From Zoogloea sp. (GTDB lineage: Bacteria > Pseudomonadota > Gammaproteobacteria > Burkholderiales > Rhodocyclaceae): a stretch of 64,000 nucleotides of DNA. The stretch covers positions 319 to 64,318 of the forward strand of contig NZ_JAQVCN010000025.1 of NCBI RefSeq assembly GCF_028689785.1. Direction: 5' to 3'. The translations under genes were made by a program, and so were the position numbers. The notes under the pieces were generated by a model, which saw nothing but the letters and a program-made list of their open reading frames with translations, was not told where the DNA came from and ran no database searches. Positions 1-15,575 of this stretch are shown here, piece by piece (position 1 is the stretch's first letter; the number at the start of each line of letters is the position of its first letter).

Positions 1-1907
1 GTGGAAGGGCGGGGCCGGGTGAGTTGCAGGTGCAGGAGCTGGAAGGCGTCCTCAAGGTGCTTGTCGGGGCTGCTGATCACGATCTGGCTCCCCAGATCGG
101 CGACGGTGGTGCGGATGCCGATGCCGCGTTGGGCCTTCCAGTGCGCGAAGGACTCGCTGTTCAGGTTGATGGTGCGCCGTTCAAGCCAGGAAAAGGCCTG
201 GCCCGCCAGTGAGTAGTTGCTGTCGGACAGATGCAGCAGCCCGCGTGGGCTGTGCAGGCCGATGGTGGTGGTGTTGCCACGGGCGGCTCCGGGTACGATC
301 AGGGCCGTCATGCCGTTGGAGAGCGTCCATGCTTCGGCTCCTGGAATGCCTTCCAGGTGGGCGCTGTTGATGATGGAGCCGGCCGTGGGTGGGTCCATCA
401 GGCGGATGAAACGGACATCCTGCGAATGACGGACCGGAGTAACGGCCGCTGGCTGGACGGAATCCTCCAGGCGGGCAAAGTGGGCGGCATCCAGCGGAGG
501 GGTGTCGAAATCCCGTCCCTCCCAGATCACCACTTTATCGCTGCTGGCTCGCATGTCCTTCCAGGCCTGATGAAGTTCGCCGGGGGTCAGTGTGTTCAGA
601 CGATCGGCCAGCAGGGCATGCTGTTGGGAGGGGGAGAGCAGGGGCTCGCCATTGTTCCGGGCTGCGTCGAGGCGCCCGATGAGGGTGCGGGAGTCGAGGG
701 GCGCGGCCCCGCTGGCGAGCCTCTCCAGGCTGGTGACGAGGAGGCCACGCTGGTGCTGCAGTTCGGCAGGCGAGAAGCTGTTGTGGTCCAGGTCGCCGAG
801 TTCGGCGAGGAGCTGGCGGGCGCCGTCCTCGGCGCGCATACCCTCGGGAAGGGGGAGGCGGGCCTGGAGCATGCGGCTGCCGTCGGGCAGGGGCATGAGC
901 TGCAGGTTCAGGCCTGCCCGGCGCCCTTGCTGGCGATCAGTGCTGCGCTGGCTGGCCAGCCGCAGGGCCAGATTCTCGCGGGTATGTGCCCACACGGCCG
1001 CCTGGCTGTCCATCACTCGCCGGGGCTGGCGTTGAGCCAGGGCGAGCGCCCGGGCGCTGCGCTCCGGATCGGCCAGGGTGAGGTGACGGGTGCCGTCGAT
1101 CTCCGGCCGGAGCCGCGGCCCACGTTCGGGAACGGGGCGTGCTGGGAGGTCGCCCAGGGCCCGCTCGATGAGGCTCTGCATGTGCTGTGAGGAAAGGTCG
1201 CCGACGGCGAGGAAATGCATGTTGCCGGGGGCATACCAGCGCTCGTAAAAGGCCTTGAGGTGTGGCGCCTCGGCGGACTGCACGTGTTCCATGACCCCGA
1301 TCGGGTTGCGTTCGGGGTAGCCGCTGCCGGGCAGCACGGCACTGATCAGGCGGGGCGAGAGGCGTTGCCCGGGGCCCTGCCGGGCCCGCCATTCGGCTTC
1401 GATCACGCCCCGCTCCCGGATTACCTCGTCGGGGCTGAAAGTGGCGTGGGCGGCCCACTCCCGGAAGATCCCCAGCACTTCGGCGAGCCGTGCCGGCTCG
1501 CCGTCGGGCAGGGTGATCATGTAACGGGTCTGGTGATGGCCGGTTAGGGCATTGACGTCGCGGCCAAAGCGCAGGCCGAGAGTTTCCAGACGTTCGACGA
1601 GGCGGTTGCCGGGGTAACGCGCAGTGCCGTTGAAGAGCATGTGCTCGACAAAATGGGCGTAGCCACGTTCATCGTCGGCTTCGTCCATGGCACCCGCATC
1701 GACCGTCAGCCACAGGTGAAGCTGACCCTTGGGGTGGGGGTTGGGCAGCACGCTCCAGCCCATGCCGTTACCCAGCCGTCCGGTCCTGAGTTCGGGGTGG
1801 CTGGGCAGGGGGCTATCGGCCCGGACGGGGAGGGCCGCGGCCAGCAGGCAAGCCAGCAGCAGCGCAACCGGCTGCCGGACGGGGGGGCGGACAGAACGCG
1901 GAGGCAT
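1..1907 (-). CDS. M16 (insulinase/pitrilysin) family zinc protease, PqqL/FusC-like; 3' part runs off the left edge
   Basis: Absent from the ORF track; translated by hand. ATG at 1907 overlaps the TGA of the upstream receptor (TGATG). Signal-peptide-like N-terminus, inverted zinc motif GYAHFVEHMLFNGT (about 1625-1665), YPERNPIG and LKAFYERWYAPGNM. Confidence 0.88.
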   Translation of the reverse strand, partial: MPPRSVRPPVRQPVALLLACLLAAALPVRADSPLPSHPELRTGRLGNGMGWSVLPNPHPKGQLHLWLTVDAGAMDEADDERGYAHFVEHMLFNGTARYPGNRLVERLETLGLRFGRDVNALTGHHQTRYMITLPDGEPARLAEVLGIFREWAAHATFSPDEVIRERGVIEAEWRARQGPGQRLSPRLISAVLPGSGYPERNPIGVMEHVQSAEAPHLKAFYERWYAPGNMHFLAVGDLSSQHMQSLIERALGDLPARPVPERGPRLRPEIDGTRHLTLADPERSARALALAQRQPRRVMDSQAAVWAHTRENLALRLASQRSTDRQQGRRAGLNLQLMPLPDGSRMLQARLPLPEGMRAEDGARQLLAELGDLDHNSFSPAELQHQRGLLVTSLERLASGAAPLDSRTLIGRLDAARNNGEPLLSPSQQHALLADRLNTLTPGELHQAWKDMRASSDKVVIWEGRDFDTPPLDAAHFARLEDSVQPAAVTPVRHSQDVRFIRLMDPPTAGSIINSAHLEGIPGAEAWTLSNGMTALIVPGAARGNTTTIGLHSPRGLLHLSDSNYSLAGQAFSWLERRTINLNSESFAHWKAQRGIGIRTTVADLGSQIVISSPDKHLEDAFQLLHLQLTRPRPS

Positions 1908-4687
1908 CAGAAGCGGTAGCCGAGTTCCAGCCAAAACTGGCGGCCGGCTTCATAGATCGTCGAGGGGGACGTGGTGTCCAGGGTGTTCGTGCGATTGAGC
2001 ACATTGTTGATGGTGACGGTGACAAAGGCCTCCTGGCCAGCGCTGGTGGGAATGCTCCAGTTGATGCGGGTATCCCAGGTCAGGGCCGGGCCGAAGCTGA
2101 GTTTGTCGTAGCTGTTCACCTGGCTACCCTGGTAGTCGGCCTTGCCGTTGAGGGCCATCTTCTGGAAGCCGGTGCGGTAGCGCAGGAAGTTGCCGATCTG
2201 CAGTCGGGCCCGGGGGATGTAGGTGTTAAAGAGAATGCGCAGGGTCTGTGGGCGGGCGTAGTTGTCGGCGGGGCGGTCGGTCCAGCGGATGAACTTGCCG
2301 TCGTAGCGCACCATGCGTTCCAGATCACCGCTGCCCAGGTCGCTGAGGGTGTCGCTGTAGTTGGCATGGGAGGTCTCGACCCGGGTCCAGTCGAGGGCGC
2401 CCATCACTGTGGTGGTGGTGCCAAAGGCCTGGATGGGCTTGAGGCTTTCATAGGCCAGGGACCACACGCTGCTGTCGGACTTGCCCACGTTGTCCCACCA
2501 GTAGTTGCCGGCCGAGCGCAGGTGGAGGACGACTTCGTCGCGGCTCTTGCGGCCGACCCGTTTCAGGGTCCATTGGCCGTTGGCCCATTTCTGGCGCACG
2601 CCCAGTACGGTTTCGTCGCTGTAGGGCACGCTCAGGTCGCCGATGTTGTACATGGCGGCGGTATTGGCGACGGTGGGGGTGCCCCACATGCCGAGCACGC
2701 CGCCCACGAGGCTGCGGTCCTGGCTGGCCATCTGCAGGGACAGGCGTTCGCGGTAGGTATGGAACTGCATGAAGTTGCGGCCGTAGTAGCGGTTGTAGCC
2801 GGCTTCCAGCAGGGTCTGTCCGTTGCCCAGCGCGTCGAACAAGAGCGCACTGCGGGGGGCGAAGGTGCCTTTGGACGCAAGGTTGCTGTCATCGTAGCGC
2901 AGGCCCAGACGGGTGGTCAGGCGGCCGTAGCGGATCTCGTCCTGGATGAAGGCGCCCTGGCTGGATTCGTTCACTTCGAACTTGCCCGCCAGGTAGATGA
3001 TGCGCCGCTTGAGGTATTGGCCTTTGCCGTTGGAGGTGGGGGAGAGGGAGCAGGTGGCGCTGTCGACTGTGCCGTTGGCCTGCAGGCAGGTGTCGGTGGC
3101 GGTGGAGAGTGTGTATTGCTCGTACTGGGTGTTGCGCTCGTAGAGAGATTCCTTGCGCTCCAGTTCGATACCGGCCTGCAGCCGGTGCTCCATACCCAGC
3201 AGGGTGAGGGGCTTGAGGTCGGCCCGGGCGGTGTAGTTGAGGGTGTCCTGCTGCTGCTTGATGTCGCCGTAGCCGCCTTCGCCGCTGTTGCCGCCCGGCA
3301 CACCCCAGTTCTTGTCGGCGGCGGAGTAGCCCCACAGTTTCCAAGTGCTGGCGTCACTATCCCGGGAGCTCTTCATGCTGCTCCAGGTGAGGCGCTGGGT
3401 GAGCTTGACGTCGTCGAAACGCTGGACCAGGCCCGCGTTGAGGCCGACCCCGCCGGACTCCAGGCGGAAGAAGCTGTTCCTGGCGTTGCTGATGAAGTAC
3501 TCGTTGTCGGAAGGGGCGTAGCTGACGGAGAGATCCAGGTCGGTGTCCCGATCGAGCCTGGCAAAGCCCTTCAGGAAGAGGTTGTCGATCTGCCGCTGCT
3601 GGACCTTGCGCCTGCTATCCCCGTCCATGCCCGCACTCCCGGTGTAGCCGGTGAGGGGGATCTCCGACGTACGCCGGACGAAGCTGCCGATGAAGCCGAA
3701 ACTGTCATTCACTTTGGATTCGATGGCGGCCCGGTAGGTCATCTTGTCGAAGCGCGGCTGCTCTGTCATATCGGCGGAGCGTTCGTACTCCTGCCGGTTG
3801 GCCGGGGCGACCTTGGCCTGCATCCATTCGGAGCGGGTCATTTCCACCGACACACGCCCGCCGAGACTGCGCCTGGGCGCGCAGGTGTCGGCACTGACCA
3901 CGCCGCCGCTGAAGCGGCCGTAGGCGGCGGGCACATTGGAATCACGCACGGTCACATCGCAGATCAGGCTGGAGTCGATGGCGAAGCCCTGACTGGCGGA
4001 GGGCGGGCTGTTGTTGCTGTTGACGCCGCTGAGGCTGGAGCCGGTGCTGGCCGGGTTGATGTCGTTGTTGATCGGCATGCCGTCCAGCTGGTAGAGGTTG
4101 GCGTAGAACTTGGCGCCGTTGATGCTGATGTCGGCGGGGGCGATCTCGCCTTGGGAGCCGGAGCGCTGCTGCTGTTCGCTGAACTGCACGCTGGGGTGCA
4201 GCTTGAGCAGGCTGGTCACGTCGCCGTTGCCGGAGGGCATGGCGCGCAGGGTGGCTTCATCCACGGTGAATACGCCGATGGATGGGTCCCGCGGGGCTTC
4301 CACCCGCACGGGGGCCAGGGTCGACTCGCTGCTGCCCTGGGGGAGACCGGGTGCCGGTTGGATGGCGGCCTGCGGTGCCGCTTCCACCAGCACGGCGTTG
4401 CTGCCCACCAGGCGGTAGCGCAGGCCGCTGCCGGCGAGGAGCTGATCAAGGGCTTCGTGTGGGGTAAGGCGGCCCTGCACAGCGGGGGCAGCCTTGCCGG
4501 CAACCGCCTCGGGGGCGTGGGAGATCTGCAGCCCGGTCTGCTGGCCAAGCACAAGCAGGGCCGCGCCGAGGGGCTGGGTGGGGATCAGGACGCTGATTTC
4601 CTGAGCGTGGGTGGCAGGGCAGGCAAGGCCGAGCAGCGCTGCAGTGAGCAGGGCGGGTGCTGTGGGGCGAAGTGCGTTGGCTTTCAT
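1907..4687 (-). CDS. TonB-dependent receptor with N-terminal STN signalling domain, YddB/FusA-like
   Basis: 926 aa; signal peptide; STN-like segment (QPLGAALLVLGQQTGLQI...ALDQLLAGSGL); plug motif ISINGAKFYANLYQLDGMPINND; paired-Cys loop; C-terminal LELGYRF. Confidence 0.9.
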   Translation of the reverse strand: MKANALRPTAPALLTAALLGLACPATHAQEISVLIPTQPLGAALLVLGQQTGLQISHAPEAVAGKAAPAVQGRLTPHEALDQLLAGSGLRYRLVGSNAVLVEAAPQAAIQPAPGLPQGSSESTLAPVRVEAPRDPSIGVFTVDEATLRAMPSGNGDVTSLLKLHPSVQFSEQQQRSGSQGEIAPADISINGAKFYANLYQLDGMPINNDINPASTGSSLSGVNSNNSPPSASQGFAIDSSLICDVTVRDSNVPAAYGRFSGGVVSADTCAPRRSLGGRVSVEMTRSEWMQAKVAPANRQEYERSADMTEQPRFDKMTYRAAIESKVNDSFGFIGSFVRRTSEIPLTGYTGSAGMDGDSRRKVQQRQIDNLFLKGFARLDRDTDLDLSVSYAPSDNEYFISNARNSFFRLESGGVGLNAGLVQRFDDVKLTQRLTWSSMKSSRDSDASTWKLWGYSAADKNWGVPGGNSGEGGYGDIKQQQDTLNYTARADLKPLTLLGMEHRLQAGIELERKESLYERNTQYEQYTLSTATDTCLQANGTVDSATCSLSPTSNGKGQYLKRRIIYLAGKFEVNESSQGAFIQDEIRYGRLTTRLGLRYDDSNLASKGTFAPRSALLFDALGNGQTLLEAGYNRYYGRNFMQFHTYRERLSLQMASQDRSLVGGVLGMWGTPTVANTAAMYNIGDLSVPYSDETVLGVRQKWANGQWTLKRVGRKSRDEVVLHLRSAGNYWWDNVGKSDSSVWSLAYESLKPIQAFGTTTTVMGALDWTRVETSHANYSDTLSDLGSGDLERMVRYDGKFIRWTDRPADNYARPQTLRILFNTYIPRARLQIGNFLRYRTGFQKMALNGKADYQGSQVNSYDKLSFGPALTWDTRINWSIPTSAGQEAFVTVTINNVLNRTNTLDTTSPSTIYEAGRQFWLELGYRF

Positions 4688-4769
4688 TGGGGCATTCGAA
4701 TGGTTGTTGTTCGATGCCTGTAAGACGTTGCTGACCGGGGGCTACCTCACCCCTCTGCGCAAAAATATT

Positions 4770-5714
4770 TCAGCGCACCACACGGATGCCGGGGAGTCGG
4801 ATTACACGCCGATTGGCCGCGGCAGCGAGCAGGGTCAGCGCGGTCTCCGGATCCTTGCTGCTGACCGTCCCGGATATCCGCTGTCGGCGGGCATTGGCCG
4901 AGGGCACCAGGATGATCTGGTGGGTATGGCGGCCAAGCACGGCGAGGGCATCGGCCAGTGGTGTGTCCTGGAAGACCAGAGTGCCTTCGGTCCAGCCTTC
5001 TTCCTGGGGCAGGGCAGGGGGCTCGGGATGGAGACCGCTGGCGTCGATGCGCACCCGCTCGCCGACGCCCAGCGTGGCGGGAGGCGTATCGGCCGGACAC
5101 CGGCTACAGGTGGCCCGCACCCGGCTTTCGAAAACACTCACGGTGGTGCCGTCGGCCTCCCGGCTGACGTCGAAACGGGTGCCCAGTGCTTCGGCGGCGC
5201 CGTCCCGGGTCTCGACGGTGAAGGCACGCGGCCGCTCCTGGCGGGCCACCTCGAAGTGGGCCCGGCCGGTTAGCAGCGCCACGTGCCGCCCCTCCGCATC
5301 CATGCGTACCCGGATTGCGCTGTCGGCATCGAGGGTGGCGATGGAGCCGTCGGCCAGGGTGATCCGGCGGATCTCGCCCTTGCCGGTGGCGTGGTCGGCC
5401 TGGAGCAGGGGAACGAGGATCTCCCGGGCGGGGTCGGCCGCTAGCAACACAATGCCGCCAGCCAGCAGGATCGCCATCGCTGCGGCCTGCGGCCGGCCCC
5501 GGCACAGGCGGCGCCGGAGCTTGTTGGAATCAATCTGACCCATCTGCGCCCAGATCCGCTGCAGTCGCTCGAAGGCGTTGCGGTGGCCAGGGTCGGCAGC
5601 CTGCCAGGCCTGGAAGGCCGCTTCCTCGTCGGCGGAGAGGGGGCCGCGTCCGTGGCGGATGACCCAGCGACCCGCTTCCTCCAGTACCGGGTCCGGGGGC
5701 GCGGCGGCGCTCAT
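4770..5714 (-). CDS. FecR-family anti-sigma / transmembrane sensor
   Basis: EEAGRWVIR...FQAWQAADPGHRNAF N-terminus, one TM helix, TGKGEIRRITLADGS, LGTRFDV, W...LVFQDTPLADAL. Confidence 0.92.
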   Translation of the reverse strand: MSAAAPPDPVLEEAGRWVIRHGRGPLSADEEAAFQAWQAADPGHRNAFERLQRIWAQMGQIDSNKLRRRLCRGRPQAAAMAILLAGGIVLLAADPAREILVPLLQADHATGKGEIRRITLADGSIATLDADSAIRVRMDAEGRHVALLTGRAHFEVARQERPRAFTVETRDGAAEALGTRFDVSREADGTTVSVFESRVRATCSRCPADTPPATLGVGERVRIDASGLHPEPPALPQEEGWTEGTLVFQDTPLADALAVLGRHTHQIILVPSANARRQRISGTVSSKDPETALTLLAAAANRRVIRLPGIRVVR

Positions 5715-6206
5715 TCAGTTTGCCAGCACAGCCTGGCAGGTCAGCAGGATGCGCATCATGTGCTTTTCCACCGCGCTGACCGAGATGCCCAGCAGGTGTG
5801 CTGTTTCGGCATGGCTGAGGCCGTCGAGCTTGTGCGCCACGAAGACTTCGATGCTGCGGCTGGGCTGGGCGAGGAGGGCTTGTTCAAGGCGCCGGATGGT
5901 GTCGGCCGCTGCTACCGAGTCGAAGGTGTCGGGTGCGGCGACGTCCCCGTACAGTGTGTCGTACTGGCCGAGAGCTGTCTTTTCTCGGCGCTGCTGGCGG
6001 TGCCAGTCCATGGCGATGTTGGCTGCCACCCTGAACACATAGGCCTTGAGGTTGGCTGGCGGTGTGGCTGGCCGTGCTGTGCTTAGGCGCAGCCAGGTGT
6101 CCTGGGCGCAGTCCCGCGCAGTGTCCCGGGAGCCTGTGCGCAAGGACAGGAAATCCACGATTTCCGGGTAATGCGCGACCAGGATTTGTGACAGACATGC
6201 AGACAT
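5715..6206 (-). CDS. FecI-like ECF sigma factor
   Basis: 163 aa; DCAQDTWLRL, YVFRVAANIAMD, GLSHAETAHLLGISVSAVEKHM; stop abuts the FecR start. Confidence 0.92.
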   Translation of the reverse strand: MSACLSQILVAHYPEIVDFLSLRTGSRDTARDCAQDTWLRLSTARPATPPANLKAYVFRVAANIAMDWHRQQRREKTALGQYDTLYGDVAAPDTFDSVAAADTIRRLEQALLAQPSRSIEVFVAHKLDGLSHAETAHLLGISVSAVEKHMMRILLTCQAVLAN

Positions 6207-6229
6207 CGGGGGCAGTCGCGAAATTCATT

Positions 6230-6248
6230 ATTGAGAATCGTTATCATT
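6230..6248. promoter_or_regulatory. Fur box
   Basis: ATTGAGAATCGTTATCATT, a 7-1-7 TGAGAAT-C-GTTATCA match, 24 bp upstream of the ECF sigma start. Confidence 0.8.
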
Positions 6249-6511
6249 ATATTTTCAGCCCGATACCTCCGCAAGAGGCGTTCTGCCGGGAAGACCGACG
6301 AACACGCCTATCCATGTGGCAGTGCGCCATGAAGGCGATTTTGAAATGCGGGGAAGCTCCCTTGGCAGGCGGCAGGGCTTGTTCCCCTATCCAGCAGCGG
6401 GTAGACTCCGGAGGTTTGGATCGTGTGGCGAAACAGCAGGGTTCGCATCATGATGCAGGACGCGTGAATTGGGCTGGTTGCAGCGCAACGCTCAACTGGC
6501 CATGGCACTCC

Positions 6512-6539
6512 AATAGGCGAACGCGAGTTCGCCTATTTT
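6512..6539 (+). terminator. Rho-independent terminator-like hairpin upstream of ppiD
   Basis: AATAGGCGAAC-GCGA-GTTCGCCTATT followed by TT; perfect 11-bp stem with GNRA loop. Confidence 0.6.
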
Positions 6540-6591
6540 GCATTTCCCATCCAATAGATCATCCGCCGTTAGCAGCAATCGAGGATTCAGC

Positions 6592-8499
6592 ATGTTTGAC
6601 GCCGTACGCAACAACAAGAAGATTGTTCAGATATTTCTGGTACTGATCACTCTTCCCTTCGCTTTTTTTGGTGTCGATTCCTACGTCAAGAATGCAGGTA
6701 GTGGTGGCGAGCTGGCTTCGATCGGTGGTTCGCCGATCTCTCAGCTGGAGTTTCAGCAGGCCATGCGCGATCAGCAGGAGCGCCTGCGCAACGCCATGGG
6801 TGAGAACTTCAATCCCGCGATGTTGGAGACCGCTGAAGCACGCAAAGCTGTTCTGGATAATCTGATCAATCAGCGCCTGCTTGCCCTGGATGCCAGCAAG
6901 ATGGGATTGACCGTGTCCGACCAGCAGATGCGCGAGACGATTGCGGCCATTCCTGCCTTTCAGGACAACGGTCAGTTTTCCTTGCCCCGCTATGAGGCTC
7001 TGCTCAAGGCGCAGGGCATGAATCAGCCGATGTTTGAATCCCGCCTGCGCAGCGATCTTGCGCTGAAACAGGTGGTCGGGGCTGTGGCAGAAGGCTCCCT
7101 GGTCTCCAGTGCATCTGCTGAGCGGGTCTTTGCCGTGCAGTTCGAGGAGCGGCAAGTCAGTGACGCGCGTATCGGTACGCAGGCCTTCGTCGGAGGAGTC
7201 AAGCTTGCGGAAGGCGCGGTGCAGAAGTTCTACGATGCCAATCGCAGTCGTTTCGAGATCCCTGCCCAGGTTCGGGCCGAGTACGTGGTGCTCAGCCAGG
7301 ATGCCTTGGCCGCCCAGCTGAGTCCGAGCGATGCGGATCTGCGCAAGGAGTACGACGCGCACCCGGAACGTTTCCGTCAGGGCGAAGAACGTCGGGCCAG
7401 CCACATCCTGATCCAGGCGCGCAAGGATGCGGGTGAAGCTGCAGTGAAGGCTGCTCGCGAGAAGATTGAGGGTATTGCTGCCCAGATCAAGGCAAACCCT
7501 GCCGATTTTGCCAAGCTTGCCAAGGAGAATTCCCAGGATCCGGGTTCGGCTGAAAAAGGGGGCGATCTGGGTTTCTTCGGTCGTGGCGCCATGGTGAAGA
7601 CCTTTGAGGATGCAGCTTTCGGGCTCGCCAAGGAAGGAGATGTGTCTGGCGTGGTGCAGTCTGATTTTGGCTTCCATATCATCAAACTGACGGGTATCAA
7701 GGCCGAGCAGGTCCGTCCGTTCGAAGAGGTGCGGAACGAGATCTCCGCCGAGTTGAAGAAGCTTGAAGCAAGCCGGAAGTTTGCGGAGTTGGCCGAGGGC
7801 TTCACCAACTTGGTTTACGAGCAGGCCGACAGCCTCAAGCCGGCTGCCGAGAAGTACAAGCTGACGGTCCAGACCACGGATTGGATCGCTCGCAATGGCA
7901 AGGCCCCTGCGCCGTTCAACAATGAGAAGCTCGTGACGGCTGTCTTTTCCGATGATGCAGTAAAGAACAAGCGAAATACCGATGCCGTGGATGTGGGCAA
8001 GGGCGTGCTTGTGTCCGCACGGGTTGTGGAATCCAGGCCTGCTTCCCTGCGCCCGTTTGACGAGGTGAAGGCTGAGATCGAGAAAGTCCTGATCCAGGAA
8101 GAAGCCGTTGTTCAGGCTGAAAAGGATGGCGAGAAGAAGTTGGCCCAACTCAACAAGGGTGAGGCCGTGGCCATCGACTGGAGCCCTTCGCGCCCGCTCC
8201 AGCGGATGGAGCAGGGGATTCCGCCGGAGGTACTGAGGGCGATCTTCCGGGCACCGTCCGACAAGTTGCCGAGTTATGCGGGCGTTAAGCTGCCGGGCGC
8301 GGGCTACGTGCTCTTCCGTATCGAGAAGGTGACGCGGCCGACTTCGACGGGCAAGGATGATCCGCGGCTTCAGGCCATCAAGCAGCAGTATTCCCGTCTG
8401 CTGGCCGAGCAGGATTTTGCTGCCTATGTGGCGGCACTGCGTAAGCGCTATGACGTCAAGGTGAATGCCGCCATGCTGGAAAGCAGCAAGGACAAGTAA
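6592..8499 (+). CDS. ppiD: Peptidyl-prolyl isomerase D (SurA N-terminal + parvulin domain)
   Basis: MFDAVRNNKK with N-terminal TM, ERRASHILI, SQDPGSAEKGGDLGFF, MVKTFEDAAF, SDFGFHII; GAGG before ATG 6592. Confidence 0.92.
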   Translation: MFDAVRNNKKIVQIFLVLITLPFAFFGVDSYVKNAGSGGELASIGGSPISQLEFQQAMRDQQERLRNAMGENFNPAMLETAEARKAVLDNLINQRLLALDASKMGLTVSDQQMRETIAAIPAFQDNGQFSLPRYEALLKAQGMNQPMFESRLRSDLALKQVVGAVAEGSLVSSASAERVFAVQFEERQVSDARIGTQAFVGGVKLAEGAVQKFYDANRSRFEIPAQVRAEYVVLSQDALAAQLSPSDADLRKEYDAHPERFRQGEERRASHILIQARKDAGEAAVKAAREKIEGIAAQIKANPADFAKLAKENSQDPGSAEKGGDLGFFGRGAMVKTFEDAAFGLAKEGDVSGVVQSDFGFHIIKLTGIKAEQVRPFEEVRNEISAELKKLEASRKFAELAEGFTNLVYEQADSLKPAAEKYKLTVQTTDWIARNGKAPAPFNNEKLVTAVFSDDAVKNKRNTDAVDVGKGVLVSARVVESRPASLRPFDEVKAEIEKVLIQEEAVVQAEKDGEKKLAQLNKGEAVAIDWSPSRPLQRMEQGIPPEVLRAIFRAPSDKLPSYAGVKLPGAGYVLFRIEKVTRPTSTGKDDPRLQAIKQQYSRLLAEQDFAAYVAALRKRYDVKVNAAMLESSKDK

Positions 8500-8541
8500 G
8501 CACCGCAGATGTGGACCCCCGCTTCCGTTCAGGGAGCGGGG

Positions 8542-8580
8542 ATGCAAAAAGGCCCCTGATGATCAGGGGCCTTTTTGCAT
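8542..8580. terminator. Bidirectional terminator between convergent ppiD and fabI
   Basis: ATGCAAAAAGGCCCCTGAT-G-ATCAGGGGCCTTTTTGCAT palindrome; a second hairpin lies at 8517-8540. Confidence 0.9.
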
Positions 8581-8598
8581 GTGCGTGCCCAGTGGCGC

Positions 8599-9393
8599 TC
8601 AGCTGCCTTGGTCCGGGTTGCCGAGGGCCGTGGTGTTGAAGCCGGCATCGACGTACATGATTTCGCCGGTAATGCCACTGGCGAGGTCGGAACACAGGAA
8701 GGCCGCGGCATTGCCGACTTCGTCGATGGTCACATTACGCCGCAGGGGCGCATTGCGCTCGTTGAAGGCGAGGAGCTTGCCGAAGCTGCCGATGCCGGAG
8801 GCCGCCAGGGTTTTGATCGGGCCTGCGGAAATGGCATTGACCCGGGTGCCTTCCGGTCCGAGGCTGACGGCCATGTACCGAACGGCGGCTTCCAGGCTGG
8901 CTTTGGCCAGACCCATGATGTTGTAGTTGGGCATGGTGCGTACCGCACCCAGGTAGGACATGGTCAGCATGGCCCCGTTGCGACCTTTCATCATGGGGCG
9001 GGCAGCCTTGGCAAGGGCGGGAAAGCTGTAGGCGCTGATGTCCTGGGCGATGCGGAAGGCTTCCCGGGAGGCGCCGTCGAGGAAATCCCCTTCCAGGGCT
9101 TCGGTGGGTGCATAGGCGATGGAGTGCACGAGGCCATCAAGGCCGTCCCATTGCTGGCCGAGTTGTTCGAACAGGCTGGCGATCTCGGTGTCGCTCTGCA
9201 CGTCACAGGGGTACACCAGCGTGCTGCCGAATTCGGCCGCCATTTTGATGACGCGATCGTGGAAACGCTCGTTCTGATAGGTGAAGGCCAGCTGGGCGCC
9301 TTCCCGGTGCATGGCTTTTGCGATCCCGTAGGAAATCGAGCGGTTGGACAGCAATCCGGTGATGAGAATGCGTTTGCCGGCGAGAAAGCCCAT
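8599..9393 (-). CDS. fabI: Enoyl-ACP reductase
   Basis: [54 protein letters not shown]. Confidence 0.97.
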
Positions 9394-9486
9394 CAAGGTG
9401 TCTCCAGTGAATAACCACTCGATTATAACGGATGCTTTCCGGCTGCGCCCTGTCGCGGATTCCGGGACATCCGGTAGACTGGGGGG

Positions 9487-11649
9487 ATGCGTGTGATGAT
9501 CCGATATCTTGCAACTCTCGTCCTGGTTGCCGTGGCTTCAGGCTGTGGGCAGGTCTGGAACGATCCCTATCCTGCAGCCGAGCGGGGCCAGAACATCTTT
9601 TATTCGGCCTTCACCCAGCGCCCCAAACATCTTGATCCGGTTCAGTCCTACAGTGAGGACGAGGCGATTTTCCTCTACCAGATCTATGAGCCGCCGCTCC
9701 AGTATCACTACCTCAAACGCCCTTTCCAGCTTGTGCCGGCGACGTCACGGGCCATGCCTACCCTGAGGCAGTACGACGGAGCCGGGCAATTGCTGCCCGT
9801 CGGCGTTGATCCGGCCAAGGTTGCCCTCAGCGAGTACGAGATCCAGATCCAGCCGGGGATTCGCTATCAGCCCCATCCGGCCTTCGCCATCGACGGCGCG
9901 GGCAAGCCGATCTACCTGAACATGAACGCCGATATGCTGGCCAGCAAGCGCAGCCTTGGCGACTTTCCGCTCACCGGCACCCGGGAGCTGACCGCCGACG
10001 ACTATGTTTACCAGATCAAGCGTCTGGCTCACCCGCGCCTGCACTCCCCGGTGCTGGAGCTGATGGGGGACTACATCATCGGGCTGAAGGACCTGCATGC
10101 GCTCCTGGTCGCCGACGAGAAGGTCAGCAAGGACAGGCAGGCGTGGATCGACCTGCGAAGCTACCCCATGAGCGGTGTCGAGGTGGTAGACCGCTACACC
10201 TACAGGGTGCGGATCAAGGGGGCTTACCCGCAGTTTCCGTACTGGCTGGCCATGCCCTTCTTTGCGCCGGTGCCCTTCGAGGCTGACCGTTTCTTCGCTC
10301 AGCCGGGGATGGCCGAGCGCAACCTGACTCTGGACTGGTGGCCCATCGGGACCGGGCCCTACATGCTCCAGGAGAACAACCCGAACGCCCGGATGGTGCT
10401 GGTGAAAAACCCCAATTACCACGGTGAGAGCTACCCCTGCGAGGGGGAGGATGAGGACAAGGCGGCGTCATTGCTGGCCGATTGCGGCAAGCCGCTGCCG
10501 TTCATCGACAAGGTGGTGTTTACCCGGGAGAAGGAGAGCATTCCTTACTGGAACAAGTTTCTGCAGGGTTACTACGATGCCTCGGGGGTGTCGTCGGACA
10601 ACTTCGATCAGGCCGTGCAGATGGGTGGGCAGGGGGACGTGACTCTCAGCGATGAGATGGTCGTCAAAGGGATCAAGCTCAACACCTCGGTGGCGCCGAG
10701 CGTGATGTACATGGGCTTCAACATGCTCGATCCAGTGGTGGGAGGCAGCAGTGAGCGGGCGCGCAAGCTGCGTCTGGCCATTTCCATTGCCATCGATCAG
10801 GAGGAGTTCATTGCGGTTTTCCTGAATGGCCGGGGCGTTCCGGCGATGCACCCGATTCCGCCGGGTATTTTCGGCTATCGCGCTGACAAGGATGGGATCA
10901 ACCCCCGGGTGTACGACTGGGTGGATGGTTTGGCCCGGCGCAAGTCGGTGGAAGAAGCACGGCGTCTGCTGGCCGATGCCGGCTACCCCGGTGGCCGGGA
11001 CGCGAAAACCGGTGAGCCGCTGGTGGTCTATCTGGATACCACGGCGGGTGGGATGGGTGACAAGTCCACCATCGACTGGCTATCGAAGCAGTTTCGCAAG
11101 CTGGATGTGCAGCTCGTGGTGCGGGCGACGGATTACAACCGTTTCCAGGACAAGATCCGCAAGGGCAATGCGCAACTGTTCTACTGGGGCTGGAATGCCG
11201 ATTATCCAGACCCGGAGAACTTCCTGTTCCTCCTTTACGGGGCCCAGGGCAAGGTCAAGAGCCAGGGCGAGAATGCGGCCAATTACGAAAATGCTGAATA
11301 CGATCGTCTCTTCGAGCGCATGAAGGCCATGCCCGACAGCCCGGAGCGTCAGGCCATCATCGAGCGCATGCTGGCCATCCTGCAGCATGACGCGCCATGG
11401 GTGTGGGGCTTCTATGAGAAGGCTTATTCCCTGCAACACGGCTGGCTGCACAATCGCAAGCCGGGCAAGATCGTCCGCAACGGCCTCAAGTACCAGCGTA
11501 TCGACGTGGATGCGCGGCAGCGTCTGCGTGCCGAATGGAACAGCCCGATGGTGTGGCCCCTGGTGCTGGTTGTGCTGGTGGGGGCCCTGGCGGTGGCTCC
11601 GGCCATCATTCACTACCGGCGTCGGGAGCGGGCAGGTGCGAGGGCCTGA
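9487..11649 (+). CDS. Family-5 (peptide/nickel) ABC solute-binding protein; lipoprotein with C-terminal TM helix
   Basis: Lipobox [30 protein letters not shown]; hydrophobic C-terminal stretch followed by YRRRER. Confidence 0.85.
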
Positions 11650-11700
11650 TCCGTCCGGCTGCATGTGCGATGGGGTGTCGTGAGAGCGGCGCTCCGACCC

Positions 11701-12327
11701 TTAGGGGGCGGGCAGCAGACCTTCCGACTGGAGCTTGCCCCCCAGCAGCTTGATGAGCTCTTCGACGACCTGGGCGGATGACCTGGGATTGAGGGTTTCG
11801 CTGACGGCGGTCCACACGGGTTTGCCTTCCGGCAGGCGATACAGCAGGGTTTCCACAACAACGGTGGTGTTTTCCACCGTGTATCCCGGCGTGGTGTAAA
11901 CATAGGGATAGAAAGTGTAGAAGGAGCCGTAGCGGGGGCCAAAGCGGCGGAAAAGAGGGTCGTTGGCGAACTGGGTCTGGGGCGGCACCACGACTTGGGA
12001 TTTATCCACCGACACCAGCCGTGACAGCAGTGCCGCATCGAAGCCCTCCCGGGCCAGCCGGGCGCGAACCTCGGCGGCTTCGAGGCTGGGGTCGAGTTCT
12101 AGGGTGTGGCCGGCGGCGGCGTTGGTGCCGGGGGGGATCGACTGGAGAACCCGATTCTCGGCCATCCGGCGCAGGTTCTCATCCTTCACTGCAACAAACA
12201 CCACCAGTTTGCGGGGTACCGCACCCGAATCAGAATCGTCGCGCCAAGTGGATTTGAGGGTGGAGCTTGCGCAGCCCGTGAGCAGGAGAGCTGCGCTAAT
12301 CAGGGCGGTGACGTGCTTGAGTGACAT
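11701..12327 (-). CDS. Conserved lipoprotein of unknown function (DUF4136-like)
   Basis: GGAG before ATG 12327; lipobox LLTGC; aromatic-rich loop YGSFYTFYPYVYTTPGY; VETLLYRL...VW. Confidence 0.6.
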   Translation of the reverse strand: MSLKHVTALISAALLLTGCASSTLKSTWRDDSDSGAVPRKLVVFVAVKDENLRRMAENRVLQSIPPGTNAAAGHTLELDPSLEAAEVRARLAREGFDAALLSRLVSVDKSQVVVPPQTQFANDPLFRRFGPRYGSFYTFYPYVYTTPGYTVENTTVVVETLLYRLPEGKPVWTAVSETLNPRSSAQVVEELIKLLGGKLQSEGLLPAP

Positions 12328-12386
12328 GGATGCTCCGCTTCGGAATTGTCGGTTGAATGCGTGAGACCGCAAGATTAACGCCAGAT

Positions 12387-15300
12387 TCAATGAAAATCCC
12401 GGCTTCGTGGGGCCAGGCGGCCCAATTGGGCAGAGCGGTCTACGACGCGCTTGGCATGCAGGTGCACCACGCGGCCCTGGCGGGTGATCTGCCCATATAC
12501 TCCGAGCAGGCGCGCACCCAGCAGAATGCGCCGCTCGGCCTCAAGGAGTTCGGGCCGGATGATCACGTTTACCCAGCCCGTTTCGTCTTCCAGGGTGATG
12601 AACAGGGTGCCCTTGGCGGTGCCCGGGCGCTGACGGCAGGTGACGATGCCGGCAGCCCGGGCCAGCTTGCGGTCGGGGCAGTCGGCGATTTCGGCAGCGC
12701 TTAGGAAGCGCTCCTCACGCAGCAGGCCGCGCAGGAAGCTCAGGGGGTGACTGCCCAGGCTGAAACCCAAACGGGCGTAATCGGCGATGACCTCCTGGGT
12801 TTCACCGGGAGGGCGCAGGAATGGCATGGCATCGGGGATAGGGGCATCCCGCAGCAAGCCAGGGGCGGCTTCGCTGCCGGCTGCTGCCCAGCAGGCCTGA
12901 CGACGGTGGCCGGCGAGACTGCCCAGGGCGCCTGCCGTGGCGAGCACCTGCAATTCGGTCGTGCTCAGGGCCGCACGGCGGGCCAGGTCTGCCACCGACT
13001 CGAAGGGGCAGGCCCGCCGTGCTGTGACGATGCGTGCTGCAGCGTCCGGGTTGAAGCCCTGGATCAGGCGCAGTCCCAGCCGGGCAGCCGGGGGGCCATG
13101 GGTGGAGGAGGGGGCCAGGGTGGATTCCCAGTCGCTCTCTGCTGCATCAGCCGGCAGGACTTCAACCTGATGGCGACGGGCATCCTGGATGAGCTGGGCG
13201 GGGCCGTAAAAACCCATCGGTTGGCTGTTGAGCAGGCCGCACAGGAAGGCTGCGGGTTCGAAGCGTTTGATCCAGGCGGATACGTACACCAGCAGGGCGA
13301 AGCTGGCGGCATGGGATTCCGGAAAGCCGTAGCTCCCGAAGCCCTGGATCTGACGGCTCAGGGCCTCGGCAAAGCTGGCTTCGTAGCCCCGGGCCAGCAT
13401 GCCCGCGGCGAGCTTGTCCTGGTAGCGGGTGAGCTCGCCCTTGCGCCCCCAGGCGCCCATGGCCCGGCGCAGCTGGTCGGCCTCGCCGGCGGTAAACCCT
13501 GCCGCCACCATGGCCAGCTGCATCACCTGCTCCTGGAAGATCGGCACGCCGTGAGTCCGGCACAGGACGGGTTCGATCTCTGGCCGGGGATAGGTGATCT
13601 TCTCATTTCGGGCGAGTTTCTCCCGGGCGGAAAGGTAGGGGTGCACCATGCCGCCCTGGATAGGCCCGGGCCGCACGATGGCGACTTCCACCACCAGGTC
13701 GTAATAACGGCGGGGGCGCAGGCGCGGCAGCATGCTCATCTGGGCCCGGGATTCGACCTGGAAAACGCCCATCGCATCGGCCTCACAGAGCATGTCGTAG
13801 ACCTCCGGCTGCTCCCGGGGGATGTCGGCCATCGTGAACGGCGCCCCCCGCCACTGGCCGATCAGCGCCAGGCTGCGGCGGATGGCTGACAGCATGCCCA
13901 GGGCCAGCACATCCACCTTGAGCAGGCCCAGGGCTTCCAGGTCGTCTTTGTCCCACTGGATGACGGTGCGATCTGCCATGGCGGCGTTTTCCATGGGCAC
14001 CAGTTCGGCCAGGGGACCGCGGGAAATAACGAAACCACCTACATGCTGGGACAGGTGGCGGGGAAAGCCGACGAGTTCGTTGGCCAGTTGGAGCAGTAAC
14101 TGGATGCGTGGGTTTGCCAGGTCCAGGCCTGCTTCGCGGATCCGCTCCGGTGACACTTTCAGACCATCCCACCAGGCCAGGCGGCGGGTGAGCTGATCCA
14201 ACTGGCCGCTATCGAAGCCGAGGGCGCGGCCCACGTCGCGCAGGGCGCTCCGGGGGCGGTAGCGGATCACTGTGGCGGCCAGGGCTGCCCGGTCACGGCC
14301 GTACTTGCGGTAAATGTACTGGATGACCTCCTCGCGGCGGTCGTGCTCGAAATCCACGTCGATGTCGGGGGGCTCGTTGCGTTCCCGGGAGATGAAGCGC
14401 TCGAACAGCAGGCTGGCTTCAGCCGGGGCCACTTCGGTTACACCCAAGGCATAACAGACCACCGAATTGGCGGCCGAGCCACGGCCCTGGCACAGGATCT
14501 TCTGACTGCGGGCAAAGCGCACGATGTCTTCGACCGTCAGGAAGAAGGCTTCGTAGCGCAGCTCGGCAATCAGAGTGAGTTCCTTGTTGACCTGGGCACG
14601 GATGCCTTCCGGCAGAGGGGTCTTGCCGGCGGCCCAATCGGGGTAGCGGCGACGCAGGCCCTGTTCCACCAGTGCCCTCAGATGGCTCGTGGCTGTGGCC
14701 CCGGCGGGCACGATCTCTTCCGGGTACTCGTAGCGCAGGGTGTCCAGGGTGAATGTGCAGCGGGCGGCTACCTTCAGGGTTTCGGCCAGCCATTCGGCCG
14801 GGTGGTGGTCGCCCAGCCGGGCCCGTGGCTGCAGGTGGGCCTCGTGATTGGGAGCCAGCAGATAGCCGGCCTCGTCCAGGCTGCAGCGGTGGCGCAGGGC
14901 GTCCAGTACGTCGGCCACGGCCTTGCGCTCCGGGGTGTGCATCAAGGGTGCGCAGGTGCTGACTACTGTCATGCCGGCACGCCGGGCTGCGTCGGTAATC
15001 CATCGGCACCGCCAGGCATCGTCGGGCCCCAGGTGAAGGGGGGCGGCCAGCCAGCTTGCACCTGGAAAGAGGCGGGCCAGCCAGCAGGCATCGGCAGCGA
15101 GCCCGTCGGGCCGCTGATCGATCGCGTCGGGGGGAAGCAACAGAGCCAGGCAGCCGGGGAGGCCGTTTTCGAGATCACTGCGCTGAAGGTGGTAAGCCCC
15201 CTTGTCCGCGGCCCGCCGGCCTTTGCTGATGAGGCTGGAGAGGCGGCCATAGGCGGAGCGGTCTGTAGCGATCAGCACCAGCCGGGGGCCGTCGGCAAGC

Positions 15301-15527
15301 TGCAGCGAGGTGCCGATCAGCAATTGCAACGCGTCCGGTTGCTGGCGCCACTGGGTATGAGCCCGGACCACACCGGCCAGGGAGCATTCGTCGGTGATGG
15401 CCAGCGCTGCATAGCCCAGGGCCACGGCCTGGGCGACCAGCTCTTCGGGGTGGGATGCGCCGGTGAGGAAGCTGAAGTTGCTGCGGCAGTAGAGTTCGGC
15501 GAAGGCTGGTGAGGGGATGCTTGTCAT
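12387..15527 (-). CDS. dnaE2: Error-prone DNA polymerase III alpha subunit (ImuC)
   Basis: FAELYCRSNFSFLTGASHPEEL, GRGSAANS, PPDIDVDFEH, FPRHLSQHVGGF, YGFPESHAASFA, CRQRPGTAKG, SRDFH tail. Confidence 0.97.
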   Translation of the reverse strand: MTSIPSPAFAELYCRSNFSFLTGASHPEELVAQAVALGYAALAITDECSLAGVVRAHTQWRQQPDALQLLIGTSLQLADGPRLVLIATDRSAYGRLSSLISKGRRAADKGAYHLQRSDLENGLPGCLALLLPPDAIDQRPDGLAADACWLARLFPGASWLAAPLHLGPDDAWRCRWITDAARRAGMTVVSTCAPLMHTPERKAVADVLDALRHRCSLDEAGYLLAPNHEAHLQPRARLGDHHPAEWLAETLKVAARCTFTLDTLRYEYPEEIVPAGATATSHLRALVEQGLRRRYPDWAAGKTPLPEGIRAQVNKELTLIAELRYEAFFLTVEDIVRFARSQKILCQGRGSAANSVVCYALGVTEVAPAEASLLFERFISRERNEPPDIDVDFEHDRREEVIQYIYRKYGRDRAALAATVIRYRPRSALRDVGRALGFDSGQLDQLTRRLAWWDGLKVSPERIREAGLDLANPRIQLLLQLANELVGFPRHLSQHVGGFVISRGPLAELVPMENAAMADRTVIQWDKDDLEALGLLKVDVLALGMLSAIRRSLALIGQWRGAPFTMADIPREQPEVYDMLCEADAMGVFQVESRAQMSMLPRLRPRRYYDLVVEVAIVRPGPIQGGMVHPYLSAREKLARNEKITYPRPEIEPVLCRTHGVPIFQEQVMQLAMVAAGFTAGEADQLRRAMGAWGRKGELTRYQDKLAAGMLARGYEASFAEALSRQIQGFGSYGFPESHAASFALLVYVSAWIKRFEPAAFLCGLLNSQPMGFYGPAQLIQDARRHQVEVLPADAAESDWESTLAPSSTHGPPAARLGLRLIQGFNPDAAARIVTARRACPFESVADLARRAALSTTELQVLATAGALGSLAGHRRQACWAAAGSEAAPGLLRDAPIPDAMPFLRPPGETQEVIADYARLGFSLGSHPLSFLRGLLREERFLSAAEIADCPDRKLARAAGIVTCRQRPGTAKGTLFITLEDETGWVNVIIRPELLEAERRILLGARLLGVYGQITRQGRVVHLHAKRVVDRSAQLGRLAPRSRDFH

Positions 15528-15534
15528 GGGTTGA

Positions 15535-15550
15535 CTGTATAAATAAACAG
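15535..15550. promoter_or_regulatory. LexA (SOS) box upstream of dnaE2
   Basis: CTGT-ATAAATAA-ACAG, a perfect CTGT-N8-ACAG, 7 bp from the dnaE2 ATG. Confidence 0.9.
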
Positions 15551-15575
15551 TCTTCCCGGCAAGCCTCCCCGAGAG

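Follow-up and report, generated by a model that had tools for sequence, protein, structure and literature searches.

A mobile five-gene cassette of Zoogloea sp. that joins a FusA/YddB-type receptor and a PqqL-like protease gene, here split by an insertion sequence, to a predicted cell-surface signalling system

Introduction

The described systems closest to the locus studied here are FusA/FusB/FusC/FusD of Pectobacterium and YddA/YddB/PqqL of Escherichia coli (Grinter et al. 2019, PMC6793856), which share with it a TonB-dependent receptor of the FusA/YddB family and an overlapping gene for a PqqL-like M16 protease. The locus lies at the left edge of a 64,000-nucleotide stretch of a Zoogloea sp. 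genome (positions 319-64318 of contig C28; hereafter the window), in which all of its genes are located on the minus strand. As in the Fus and YddB systems, iron control through Fur is likely. Unlike in these systems, the receptor carries an STN domain, a dedicated pair of an extracytoplasmic function (ECF) sigma factor and a FecR protein is present, and an extra gene encodes a lipoprotein with Lcl_C and di-haem peroxidase domains; a FusB-like TonB protein and a FusD/YddA-like ABC transporter are missing from the cassette, and in this genome an insertion sequence (IS) interrupts the protease gene. The regulatory part resembles that of FecIRA and HasISR in having a Fur box, an ECF sigma factor, a FecR protein with a DUF4880 domain, an STN transducer, and a candidate promoter in the gap separating fecR from the receptor gene, but it differs in the FusA-like barrel of the receptor and in an operon that holds protease and peroxidase genes instead of ABC import genes. 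In cell-surface signalling systems the inducing ligand is normally the transported substrate, and YddB and PqqL have been linked to the fitness of uropathogens.

We read the locus, with a probability of about 80%, as a horizontally mobile, iron-regulated five-gene "protease-associated import" cassette under cell-surface signalling, whose M16 gene is split by an IS in this genome. The genome (G000) is a 5.08-Mb draft of 128 contigs with an estimated contamination of 2.7%, and the left edge of the window is 318 bases away from the contig end. For comparison we used two Zoogloea metagenome-assembled genomes (MAGs; G013 and G018, with the corresponding loci L020 and L021), the loci L101 (metagenome contig ERZ28598266) and L102, and the loci of Azoarcus indigens DSM 12121 (L023) and Oryzomicrobium (L027). 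In addition, the 80 best FusA-like loci of a species-representative genome collection were surveyed, and their neighbouring genes were typed with the window's own proteins.

Gene content of the cassette

The cassette comprises, in this order, genes for the ECF sigma factor, FecR, the receptor, the M16 protease, and a lipoprotein with Lcl_C and di-haem peroxidase (CCP_MauG) domains. All features listed in a first-pass annotation of the window, namely a Fur box, an ECF sigma factor, FecR, an STN-bearing TonB receptor, and an M16 protease gene starting at a TGATG overlap, are present. The peroxidase gene starts with an ATG 7 nt past the M16 stop codon, and its 717-aa product contains a lipobox (LAAC) and two CxxCH motifs.

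The two Zoogloea MAGs share these genes at 86% nucleotide identity, with a 931-aa M16 protein showing two M16_C domains followed by the Lcl_C and CCP_MauG protein. The same five genes are found on the L101 contig in yet another context; L101 and L102 have an M16 protein with 70% identity to the L020 one. Among the relatives that keep the cassette, the identity of the M16 proteins is 70-88%. Past these relatives the next M16 matches are only ~30% identical, and the two contigs examined had no neighbouring receptor gene.

Receptor and protease

The receptor gene (positions 1907-4687, minus strand) encodes a FusA/YddB-family TonB-dependent transducer of 926 aa with a signal peptide, an STN domain, a plug, and a barrel. 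In a phmmer search of all PDB chains, residues 117-925 matched residues 49-867 of FusA (4zgv; E value, 2.4e-83), and YddB (6ofr) was matched with an E value of 8.6e-60. The portion following the STN domain has ~810 aa, which is the length of a FusA-like barrel. FpvA, PupA, FemA, and HasR matched only the N-terminal STN region (residues ~14-114), and no barrel of a siderophore or haem receptor was matched in the PDB at E<0.01. The assignment to FusA/YddB rather than to siderophore or haem receptors, as proposed in the first-pass annotation, is therefore borne out over the full plug and barrel. A quick maximum-likelihood tree with YddB as root placed the receptor, with a support of 100, in a clade of 25 receptors, mostly betaproteobacterial, that usually have a peroxidase gene as partner; the Pseudomonas receptors associated with M16 and YddA-type genes formed a separate clade, also with a support of 100.

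The window contains the 5' part of the M16 gene, codons 1-635 (positions 1-1907, minus strand), which continues to C28:125, 194 nt to the left of the window. Its ATG (positions 1907-1905) overlaps the TGA stop codon of the receptor gene by one base (cTGATGc), which suggests translational coupling. The best PDB match of the protein was PqqL (6ofs; E value, 2.7e-82), followed by FusC (6b03; 7e-38), so that the protease is PqqL/FusC-like, as had been supposed, and closest to PqqL. The inverzincin motif HxxEH is present as HFVEH at residues 85-89, the sequence ERGVIEAEW at residue 165 aligns with ERGVITEEW of PqqL, and the N-terminus MPPRSVRPPVRQPVALLLACLLAAALPVRA, followed by D, resembles a Sec signal peptide by eye. 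The M16 proteins of the relatives are like PqqL in their length of ~930 aa and the HxxEH motif, and have a putative signal peptide.

Regulators and promoter motifs

The sigma gene (positions 5715-6206, minus strand) encodes a FecI-type ECF sigma factor of 163 aa, which was recognized by the Sigma70_r2, Sigma70_r4_2, and Sigma70_ECF models as well as by NCBIfam ECF/FecI-like models. The adjacent gene (positions 4770-5714, minus strand), whose ATG abuts the sigma stop codon (TGAATG), encodes a FecR-type transmembrane anti-sigma factor or sigma regulator of 314 aa with DUF4880 and FecR domains; it matched FecR PRK09774 with an E value of 1.6e-38, a score under the curated cut-off. With the STN domain on the receptor, a complete FecIRA-type trio is present in adjacent genes.

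Matches to the Fur box were scored over 19 positions against GATAATGATAATCATTATC. A Fur-box-like operator consisting of two overlapping 19-mers is located on the minus strand at positions 6227-6251, with 14 of 19 matches at 6227-6245 and 15 of 19 at 6233-6251. It lies ~27 nt 5' of the sigma ATG and overlaps a TATAAT hexamer. The 15/19 site scores highest in the window (64 kb), and the 5.08-Mb genome has only six sites, this one included, with at least 15/19 matches. In close relatives, Fur-like boxes with 15 to 17 of 19 matches occupy the same position before the sigma gene, and in the survey a Fur-like box with at least 13/19 matches was found in 33 of the 59 sigma-bearing FusA-like loci, compared to ~5% of background windows.

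A candidate ECF-dependent promoter, GGTGAGGT-N16-CGTCTT, is located at positions 4722-4751 (minus strand) within the 85-nt gap between fecR and the receptor gene. The two boxes, GGTGAGGT (GGTGAGG) and CGTCTT, are separated by 16 unconserved nucleotides. The same bipartite motif precedes the receptor gene in L020, whose receptor is 89% identical, in L101 and L102, and also at the more distant loci of Azoarcus indigens (53% receptor identity) and Oryzomicrobium (57%). In the entire genome under study it occurs only twice. More distant loci show other FecI-type motifs, for example TGAAAAT...CGTCTT in Pseudomonas.

At the Azoarcus indigens locus (L023:5818-8104), the Lcl_C and peroxidase gene forms a separate unit upstream of the sigma gene.

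This separate peroxidase gene has its own upstream copy of GGTGAGGT-N16-CGTCTT, which supports its co-regulation with the receptor. The distribution of the motif, with two copies in the genome under study and one before the peroxidase gene of Azoarcus indigens, fits an ECF promoter and would place the peroxidase in the regulon. Both the sigma-dependent promoter of the receptor gene and the Fur control of the sigma gene are computational predictions. The signalling wiring of sigma factor, FecR, and STN domain that had been claimed for the locus is complete, and it is backed by the conserved ECF-type motif before the receptor gene and the Fur box before the sigma gene.

Interruption of the M16 gene by an IS1182-like element

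At C28:124 the M16 reading frame enters a repeated insertion sequence, and a stop codon follows four codons further on, which results in an open reading frame (ORF) of 703 aa, compared to 931 aa for PqqL. Over its residues 1-697 the protein shares 77% identity with the corresponding residues (1-697) of the full-length 931-aa protein from a Zoogloea MAG, and collinearity with G013 and G018 ends at C28:136. The remaining 235 codons of the M16 gene and the intact peroxidase gene are located at the right end of another contig, C61, next to the opposite end of the IS. Together the two M16 fragments cover the intact protein, at residues 1-697 and 695-931, and no further lesion was found. The suspicion that genes continue past the left edge of the window was thus correct, but the M16 frame runs into the IS and its remainder is found on C61.

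The element ends are C28:1-124 (L001:1-124) and C61:44683-44808 (L019:14684-14809). They carry 12-bp inverted ends (CAGACTGCTGAC), and the same 19-bp direct repeat of M16 coding sequence, GGGGCGCTATTAGCGCCCT, flanks both of them. The target, a near-palindrome of 17-19 bp, is duplicated in each of two cases: the M16 gene (GGGGCGCTATTAGCGCCCT) and contig C64 (GGGAGCCAGCAGGCTCCC). The sequence C28:1-124 is repeated in the genome, and 13 contig ends terminate in 100% identical copies of the two element ends, from which about 6-7 full copies can be deduced whose interiors are absent from the assembly. Degenerate copies of ~0.7-0.9 kb, which are internally deleted and have ends with 85-92% identity, are found on C64 (L017:732-1620) and at C11:37097-37773. 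A transposase with DUF772 and DDE_Tnp_1_6 domains, indicating an IS1182-type element, was seen only on these degenerate copies (C64, C11), one of which keeps a 241-aa remnant of it. The element agrees with the IS1182 family in its transposase domains, short terminal inverted repeats, palindromic target with a long direct repeat, and high copy number. No full-length copy was found in the assembly, so that the family assignment of the copy in the M16 gene is provisional.

The most economical explanation is one recent IS insertion at codon ~697 of the 931 M16 codons, with C61 and C28 presumed to be joined through the element. Such an insertion at this codon would remove the fourth M16 domain and sever the peroxidase gene from the operon promoter. 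The four-domain single-chain architecture of FusC/PqqL-type M16 proteins, which have about 900-930 aa and form two clam-shell halves, is accordingly absent here (703-aa ORF) and present in the relatives (931-944 aa, two M16_C hits). The processing half of the system, consisting of M16 protease and peroxidase, is very probably disabled in this genome, whereas the regulators and the receptor are intact.

We also considered the 703-aa protein as a natural three-domain M16 variant with its own terminator. This was ruled out, because the apparent terminator and the next ATG belong to the end of the multicopy IS and the proteins of the relatives have 931-944 aa.

Mobility of the cassette

The homology between the genome under study and the two MAGs is confined to positions 7-6279 of the window plus the C61 piece, in total ~9.3 kb. 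The right-hand boundary of the cassette is located at positions 6279-6371: the homology to the cassette of the relatives ends at 6279, and homology to the ppiD locus starts at ~6371. The flank on C61 consists of tig-clpP-clpX-lon-tRNA-Arg-hupB-tRNA-Val-tRNA-Asp, and on the window side follows ppiD, so that the insertion point is just past tRNA-Asp (L019:10856-11637; window 6279-6538). In four congeners the site is empty, with hupB-tRNA-Val-tRNA-Asp directly followed by ppiD. One of these is G013, whose own cassette is located elsewhere beside an IS66 transposase gene. Among the 24 congeners searched, only two contained the receptor. The GC content of the cassette is 0.64-0.70, compared to 0.56-0.59 in the ppiD region. 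No 9-mers were shared as att-like direct repeats between the cassette borders by tRNA-Asp, and no integrase gene was seen at the cassette. These results show that the cassette is mobile as a unit and occupies different sites in different Zoogloea genomes.

On the metagenomic contig (L101:1-5512), the genes immediately upstream of the cassette encode eCIS_core, Colicin-DNase/WHH toxin, and SMI1_KNR4 immunity-like domains. This setting is a further sign of the occurrence of the cassette in variable regions.

Distribution of the arrangement among FusA-like loci

In the first-pass annotation it was assumed that Fus-type loci have no dedicated sigma/anti-sigma pair. This premise is wrong for the family at large, as evident from the survey and from published FecI/FecR contexts. 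FecR adjoined the receptor in 62 of the 80 loci, 59 of which also had the sigma gene, and about 35 of the 62 contained an M16 gene as well. An STN domain was found in 70 of the 80 receptors; all 62 receptors with adjacent FecR were among these. The arrangement sigma-FecR-receptor-M16 was present in 25 loci, with a YddA/FusD-like ABC transporter gene after the M16 gene in 24 of them, and sigma-FecR-receptor-peroxidase likewise in 25. Six loci showed the order sigma-FecR-receptor-peroxidase-M16, and two, those of the two Zoogloea MAGs, the order sigma-FecR-receptor-M16-peroxidase. In 13 loci receptor and peroxidase genes occurred without regulators; 10 of these, mostly from Janthinobacterium, lacked the STN domain.

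In the S1 Table of Grinter et al. (PMC6793856), with 29 "FecR" entries in the file, contexts of the type FecI/FecR/A/... are given, including FecI/FecR/A/C550/C for Azonexus hydrophilus. The main text of that paper does not mention sigma or anti-sigma factors, and in full-text literature searches we found no paper that discusses FusA or PqqL together with FecR, anti-sigma factors, or cell-surface signalling. The surface-signalling wiring of Fus-type loci has thus been tabulated, not discussed, in the literature searched. The table may even under-report regulators, to judge from its entry for Pseudomonas sp. 10-1B, which reads A/C/D; this strain has two homologues, either of which the row may describe.

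At L089 (Pseudomonas sp. 10-1B, contig_15, positions 8151-17208), sigma and FecR genes are located directly upstream of the FusA-like receptor gene, with M16 and YddA genes downstream. Phytopseudomonas dryadis (L078:5103-19844) has tandem sigma-FecR-receptor modules, the first with a peroxidase gene and the second with M16 and YddA-like genes.

The FecI/FecR/A/C550(/C) contexts, which belong to the "Pseudomonas" cluster of FusA homologues, have, in the tabulated rows, the same part list as the Zoogloea cassette: sigma factor, FecR, an STN-bearing FusA-like receptor, a gene belonging to the cytochrome c peroxidase family, and an M16 protease. They differ in the gene order, which is receptor-peroxidase-M16 in FecI/FecR/A/C550/C and receptor-M16-peroxidase in Zoogloea, and in the peroxidase, which has ~380-460 aa in the FecI/FecR/A/C550 contexts and in Zoogloea carries an extra Lcl_C domain and reaches 717 aa. 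Their receptors fall into another clade, and the Zoogloea M16 protein is of a different lineage, scoring 49-59 bits against the Azonexus M16 proteins and 281 bits against PqqL. The sigma-FecR-FusA-FusC-FusD loci of Pseudomonas sp. 10-1B (L089), P. cuatrocienegasensis (L065), and Ectopseudomonas mendocina (L081) are like the Zoogloea cassette in having sigma and FecR, an STN-bearing FusA-like receptor, and an M16 gene in one direction, in many cases with a Fur-like box before the sigma gene. Unlike the cassette, loci of this type end in a YddA-like ABC transporter gene (24 of 25) and have no peroxidase gene; their receptors and M16 proteins form separate clades, and the ECF motif, TGAAAAT...CGTCTT, is different.

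In a tree, the receptor-linked M16 proteins fell into three lineages. That of the Zoogloea cassette paired tentatively with E. coli PqqL (SH-aLRT, 87; long branches), far from the Azonexus and Pseudomonas proteins. FusA-like receptors therefore seem to have acquired M16 partners on more than one occasion, in agreement with the argument of Grinter et al. (PMC6793856).

Proposed function and alternative readings

Based on established FecIRA biology and the motifs described above, iron limitation would cause Fur to release the promoter of the sigma-fecR genes. Binding of a ligand to the FusA-family receptor would then be signalled by the periplasmic STN domain to FecR, the ECF sigma factor would be freed, and transcription of a tightly packed operon from GGTGAGG-N16-CGTCTT would provide the receptor, the presumably periplasmic PqqL-like M16 protease, and the Lcl_C and di-haem cytochrome c peroxidase (MauG-type) lipoprotein. 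By analogy to FusA and FusC, the receptor would import a small protein or another large ligand, which the M16 protease would cleave. The peroxidase-like protein may act on the redox cofactor of the ligand; Grinter et al. suggested reductive release of the cofactor as the function of such peroxidases (PMC6793856). That the substrate is an iron protein is pure inference. It is also possible, though we consider it rather doubtful, that the inducer is the imported protein itself, so that a specific redox or iron protein, foreign or derived from the community, would be sensed on the cell surface and then dismantled by importer, protease, and haem peroxidase.

Several observations speak against the proposed cassette function. 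The consensus scan for sigma-70 promoters at the Fur box revealed no full promoter but only the TATAAT hexamer with a weak -35 region. Neither a FusB-like TonB gene nor a FusD/YddA-like transporter gene is present in the cassette (FusB was not searched genome-wide), and a tblastn search of the genome with YddA gave only weak hits to nucleotide-binding domains and no orthologue. The absence of a fusB/fusD-like partner noticed in the first-pass annotation thus extends to the whole cassette and, for YddA, to the genome, which leaves a released cofactor without an evident route into the cytoplasm. The interior of the IS was not found in the assembly, which makes the C61-C28 join a presumed one. 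Moreover, a substrate of FusA-family receptors is known in Pectobacterium only, PqqL did not cleave any of the iron proteins assayed, and YddB and PqqL gave no growth benefit in LB medium (PMC6793856).

The lack of a demonstrated protein substrate for YddB and PqqL leaves room for another view, in which the cargo of the receptor is a small iron compound (siderophore, haem, or metal chelate), as in FecIRA, the M16 protease and peroxidase are accessory or unrelated, and protein import is an over-reach of homology. The characterized FecI/FecR/STN systems all respond to small iron carriers or to haem or a haemophore (review cited in PMC11658791), and most loci in the receptor's own clade have a peroxidase gene only and no protease gene. 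However, the barrel is specifically FusA/YddB-like and matched no siderophore or haem receptor in the PDB search, the TGATG overlap of receptor and M16 genes suggests translational coupling, and the presence of M16 genes of three lineages beside FusA-like receptors argues, as put forward by Grinter et al., for a functional link with proteolysis. Import of a small iron compound is therefore unlikely, although it deserves to be taken seriously. An intact 931-aa protease gene in the organism or in most of its cells, with the interruption being an artefact of assembly or binning or restricted to part of the population, might be suspected given the fragmented draft with its estimated contamination and the unassembled IS interior. 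We consider this improbable: both contig ends pass from M16 coding sequence into opposite ends of one element with a 19-bp target duplication on either side, a duplication of unique coding sequence that no assembler would produce, and the closure of 13 contig ends by identical element ends is typical of a real multicopy IS. The claim of the first-pass annotation that a Fus/PqqL-type system is tied here for the first time to cell-surface signalling, and hence represents a new regulatory variant, could draw on the silence of the main text of PMC6793856 and of the literature searched. We give it hardly any credence in view of the FecI/FecR contexts in the tabulated rows of the S1 Table, the adjacent FecR in 62 of 80 loci, and the 25 sigma-FecR-receptor-M16 loci, 24 of them with a YddA-like transporter gene.

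If the cassette is indeed a protease-associated import system under cell-surface signalling, its value lies mainly in access to the substrates of protease-associated import outside Pectobacterium, including those of E. coli YddB/PqqL. Since close relatives are mostly under surface signalling and share a conserved putative sigma-dependent promoter, a promoter-reporter fusion could be used as a simple screen for the inducing ligand and thus for substrates of such systems. If the imported protein itself is the inducer, the Zoogloea-type combination of M16 protease and Lcl_C-peroxidase would represent a separate variant of the processing step that can do without a FusD-type transporter. Apart from this, the locus, with its probably disabled processing half, is a further, partly broken copy of a widespread and already tabulated class and adds little beyond that, except that it shows the cassette moving as a unit and decaying through IS insertion.

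Flanking region

The housekeeping gene ppiD (positions 6538-8496, plus strand), encoding a protein with SurA_N_3 and rotamase domains, flanks the insertion site and is outside the system. Antisense to ppiD, a 662-aa ORF without any family match extends over positions 6559-8547 (minus strand); it is almost certainly a spurious shadow frame of high-GC DNA.

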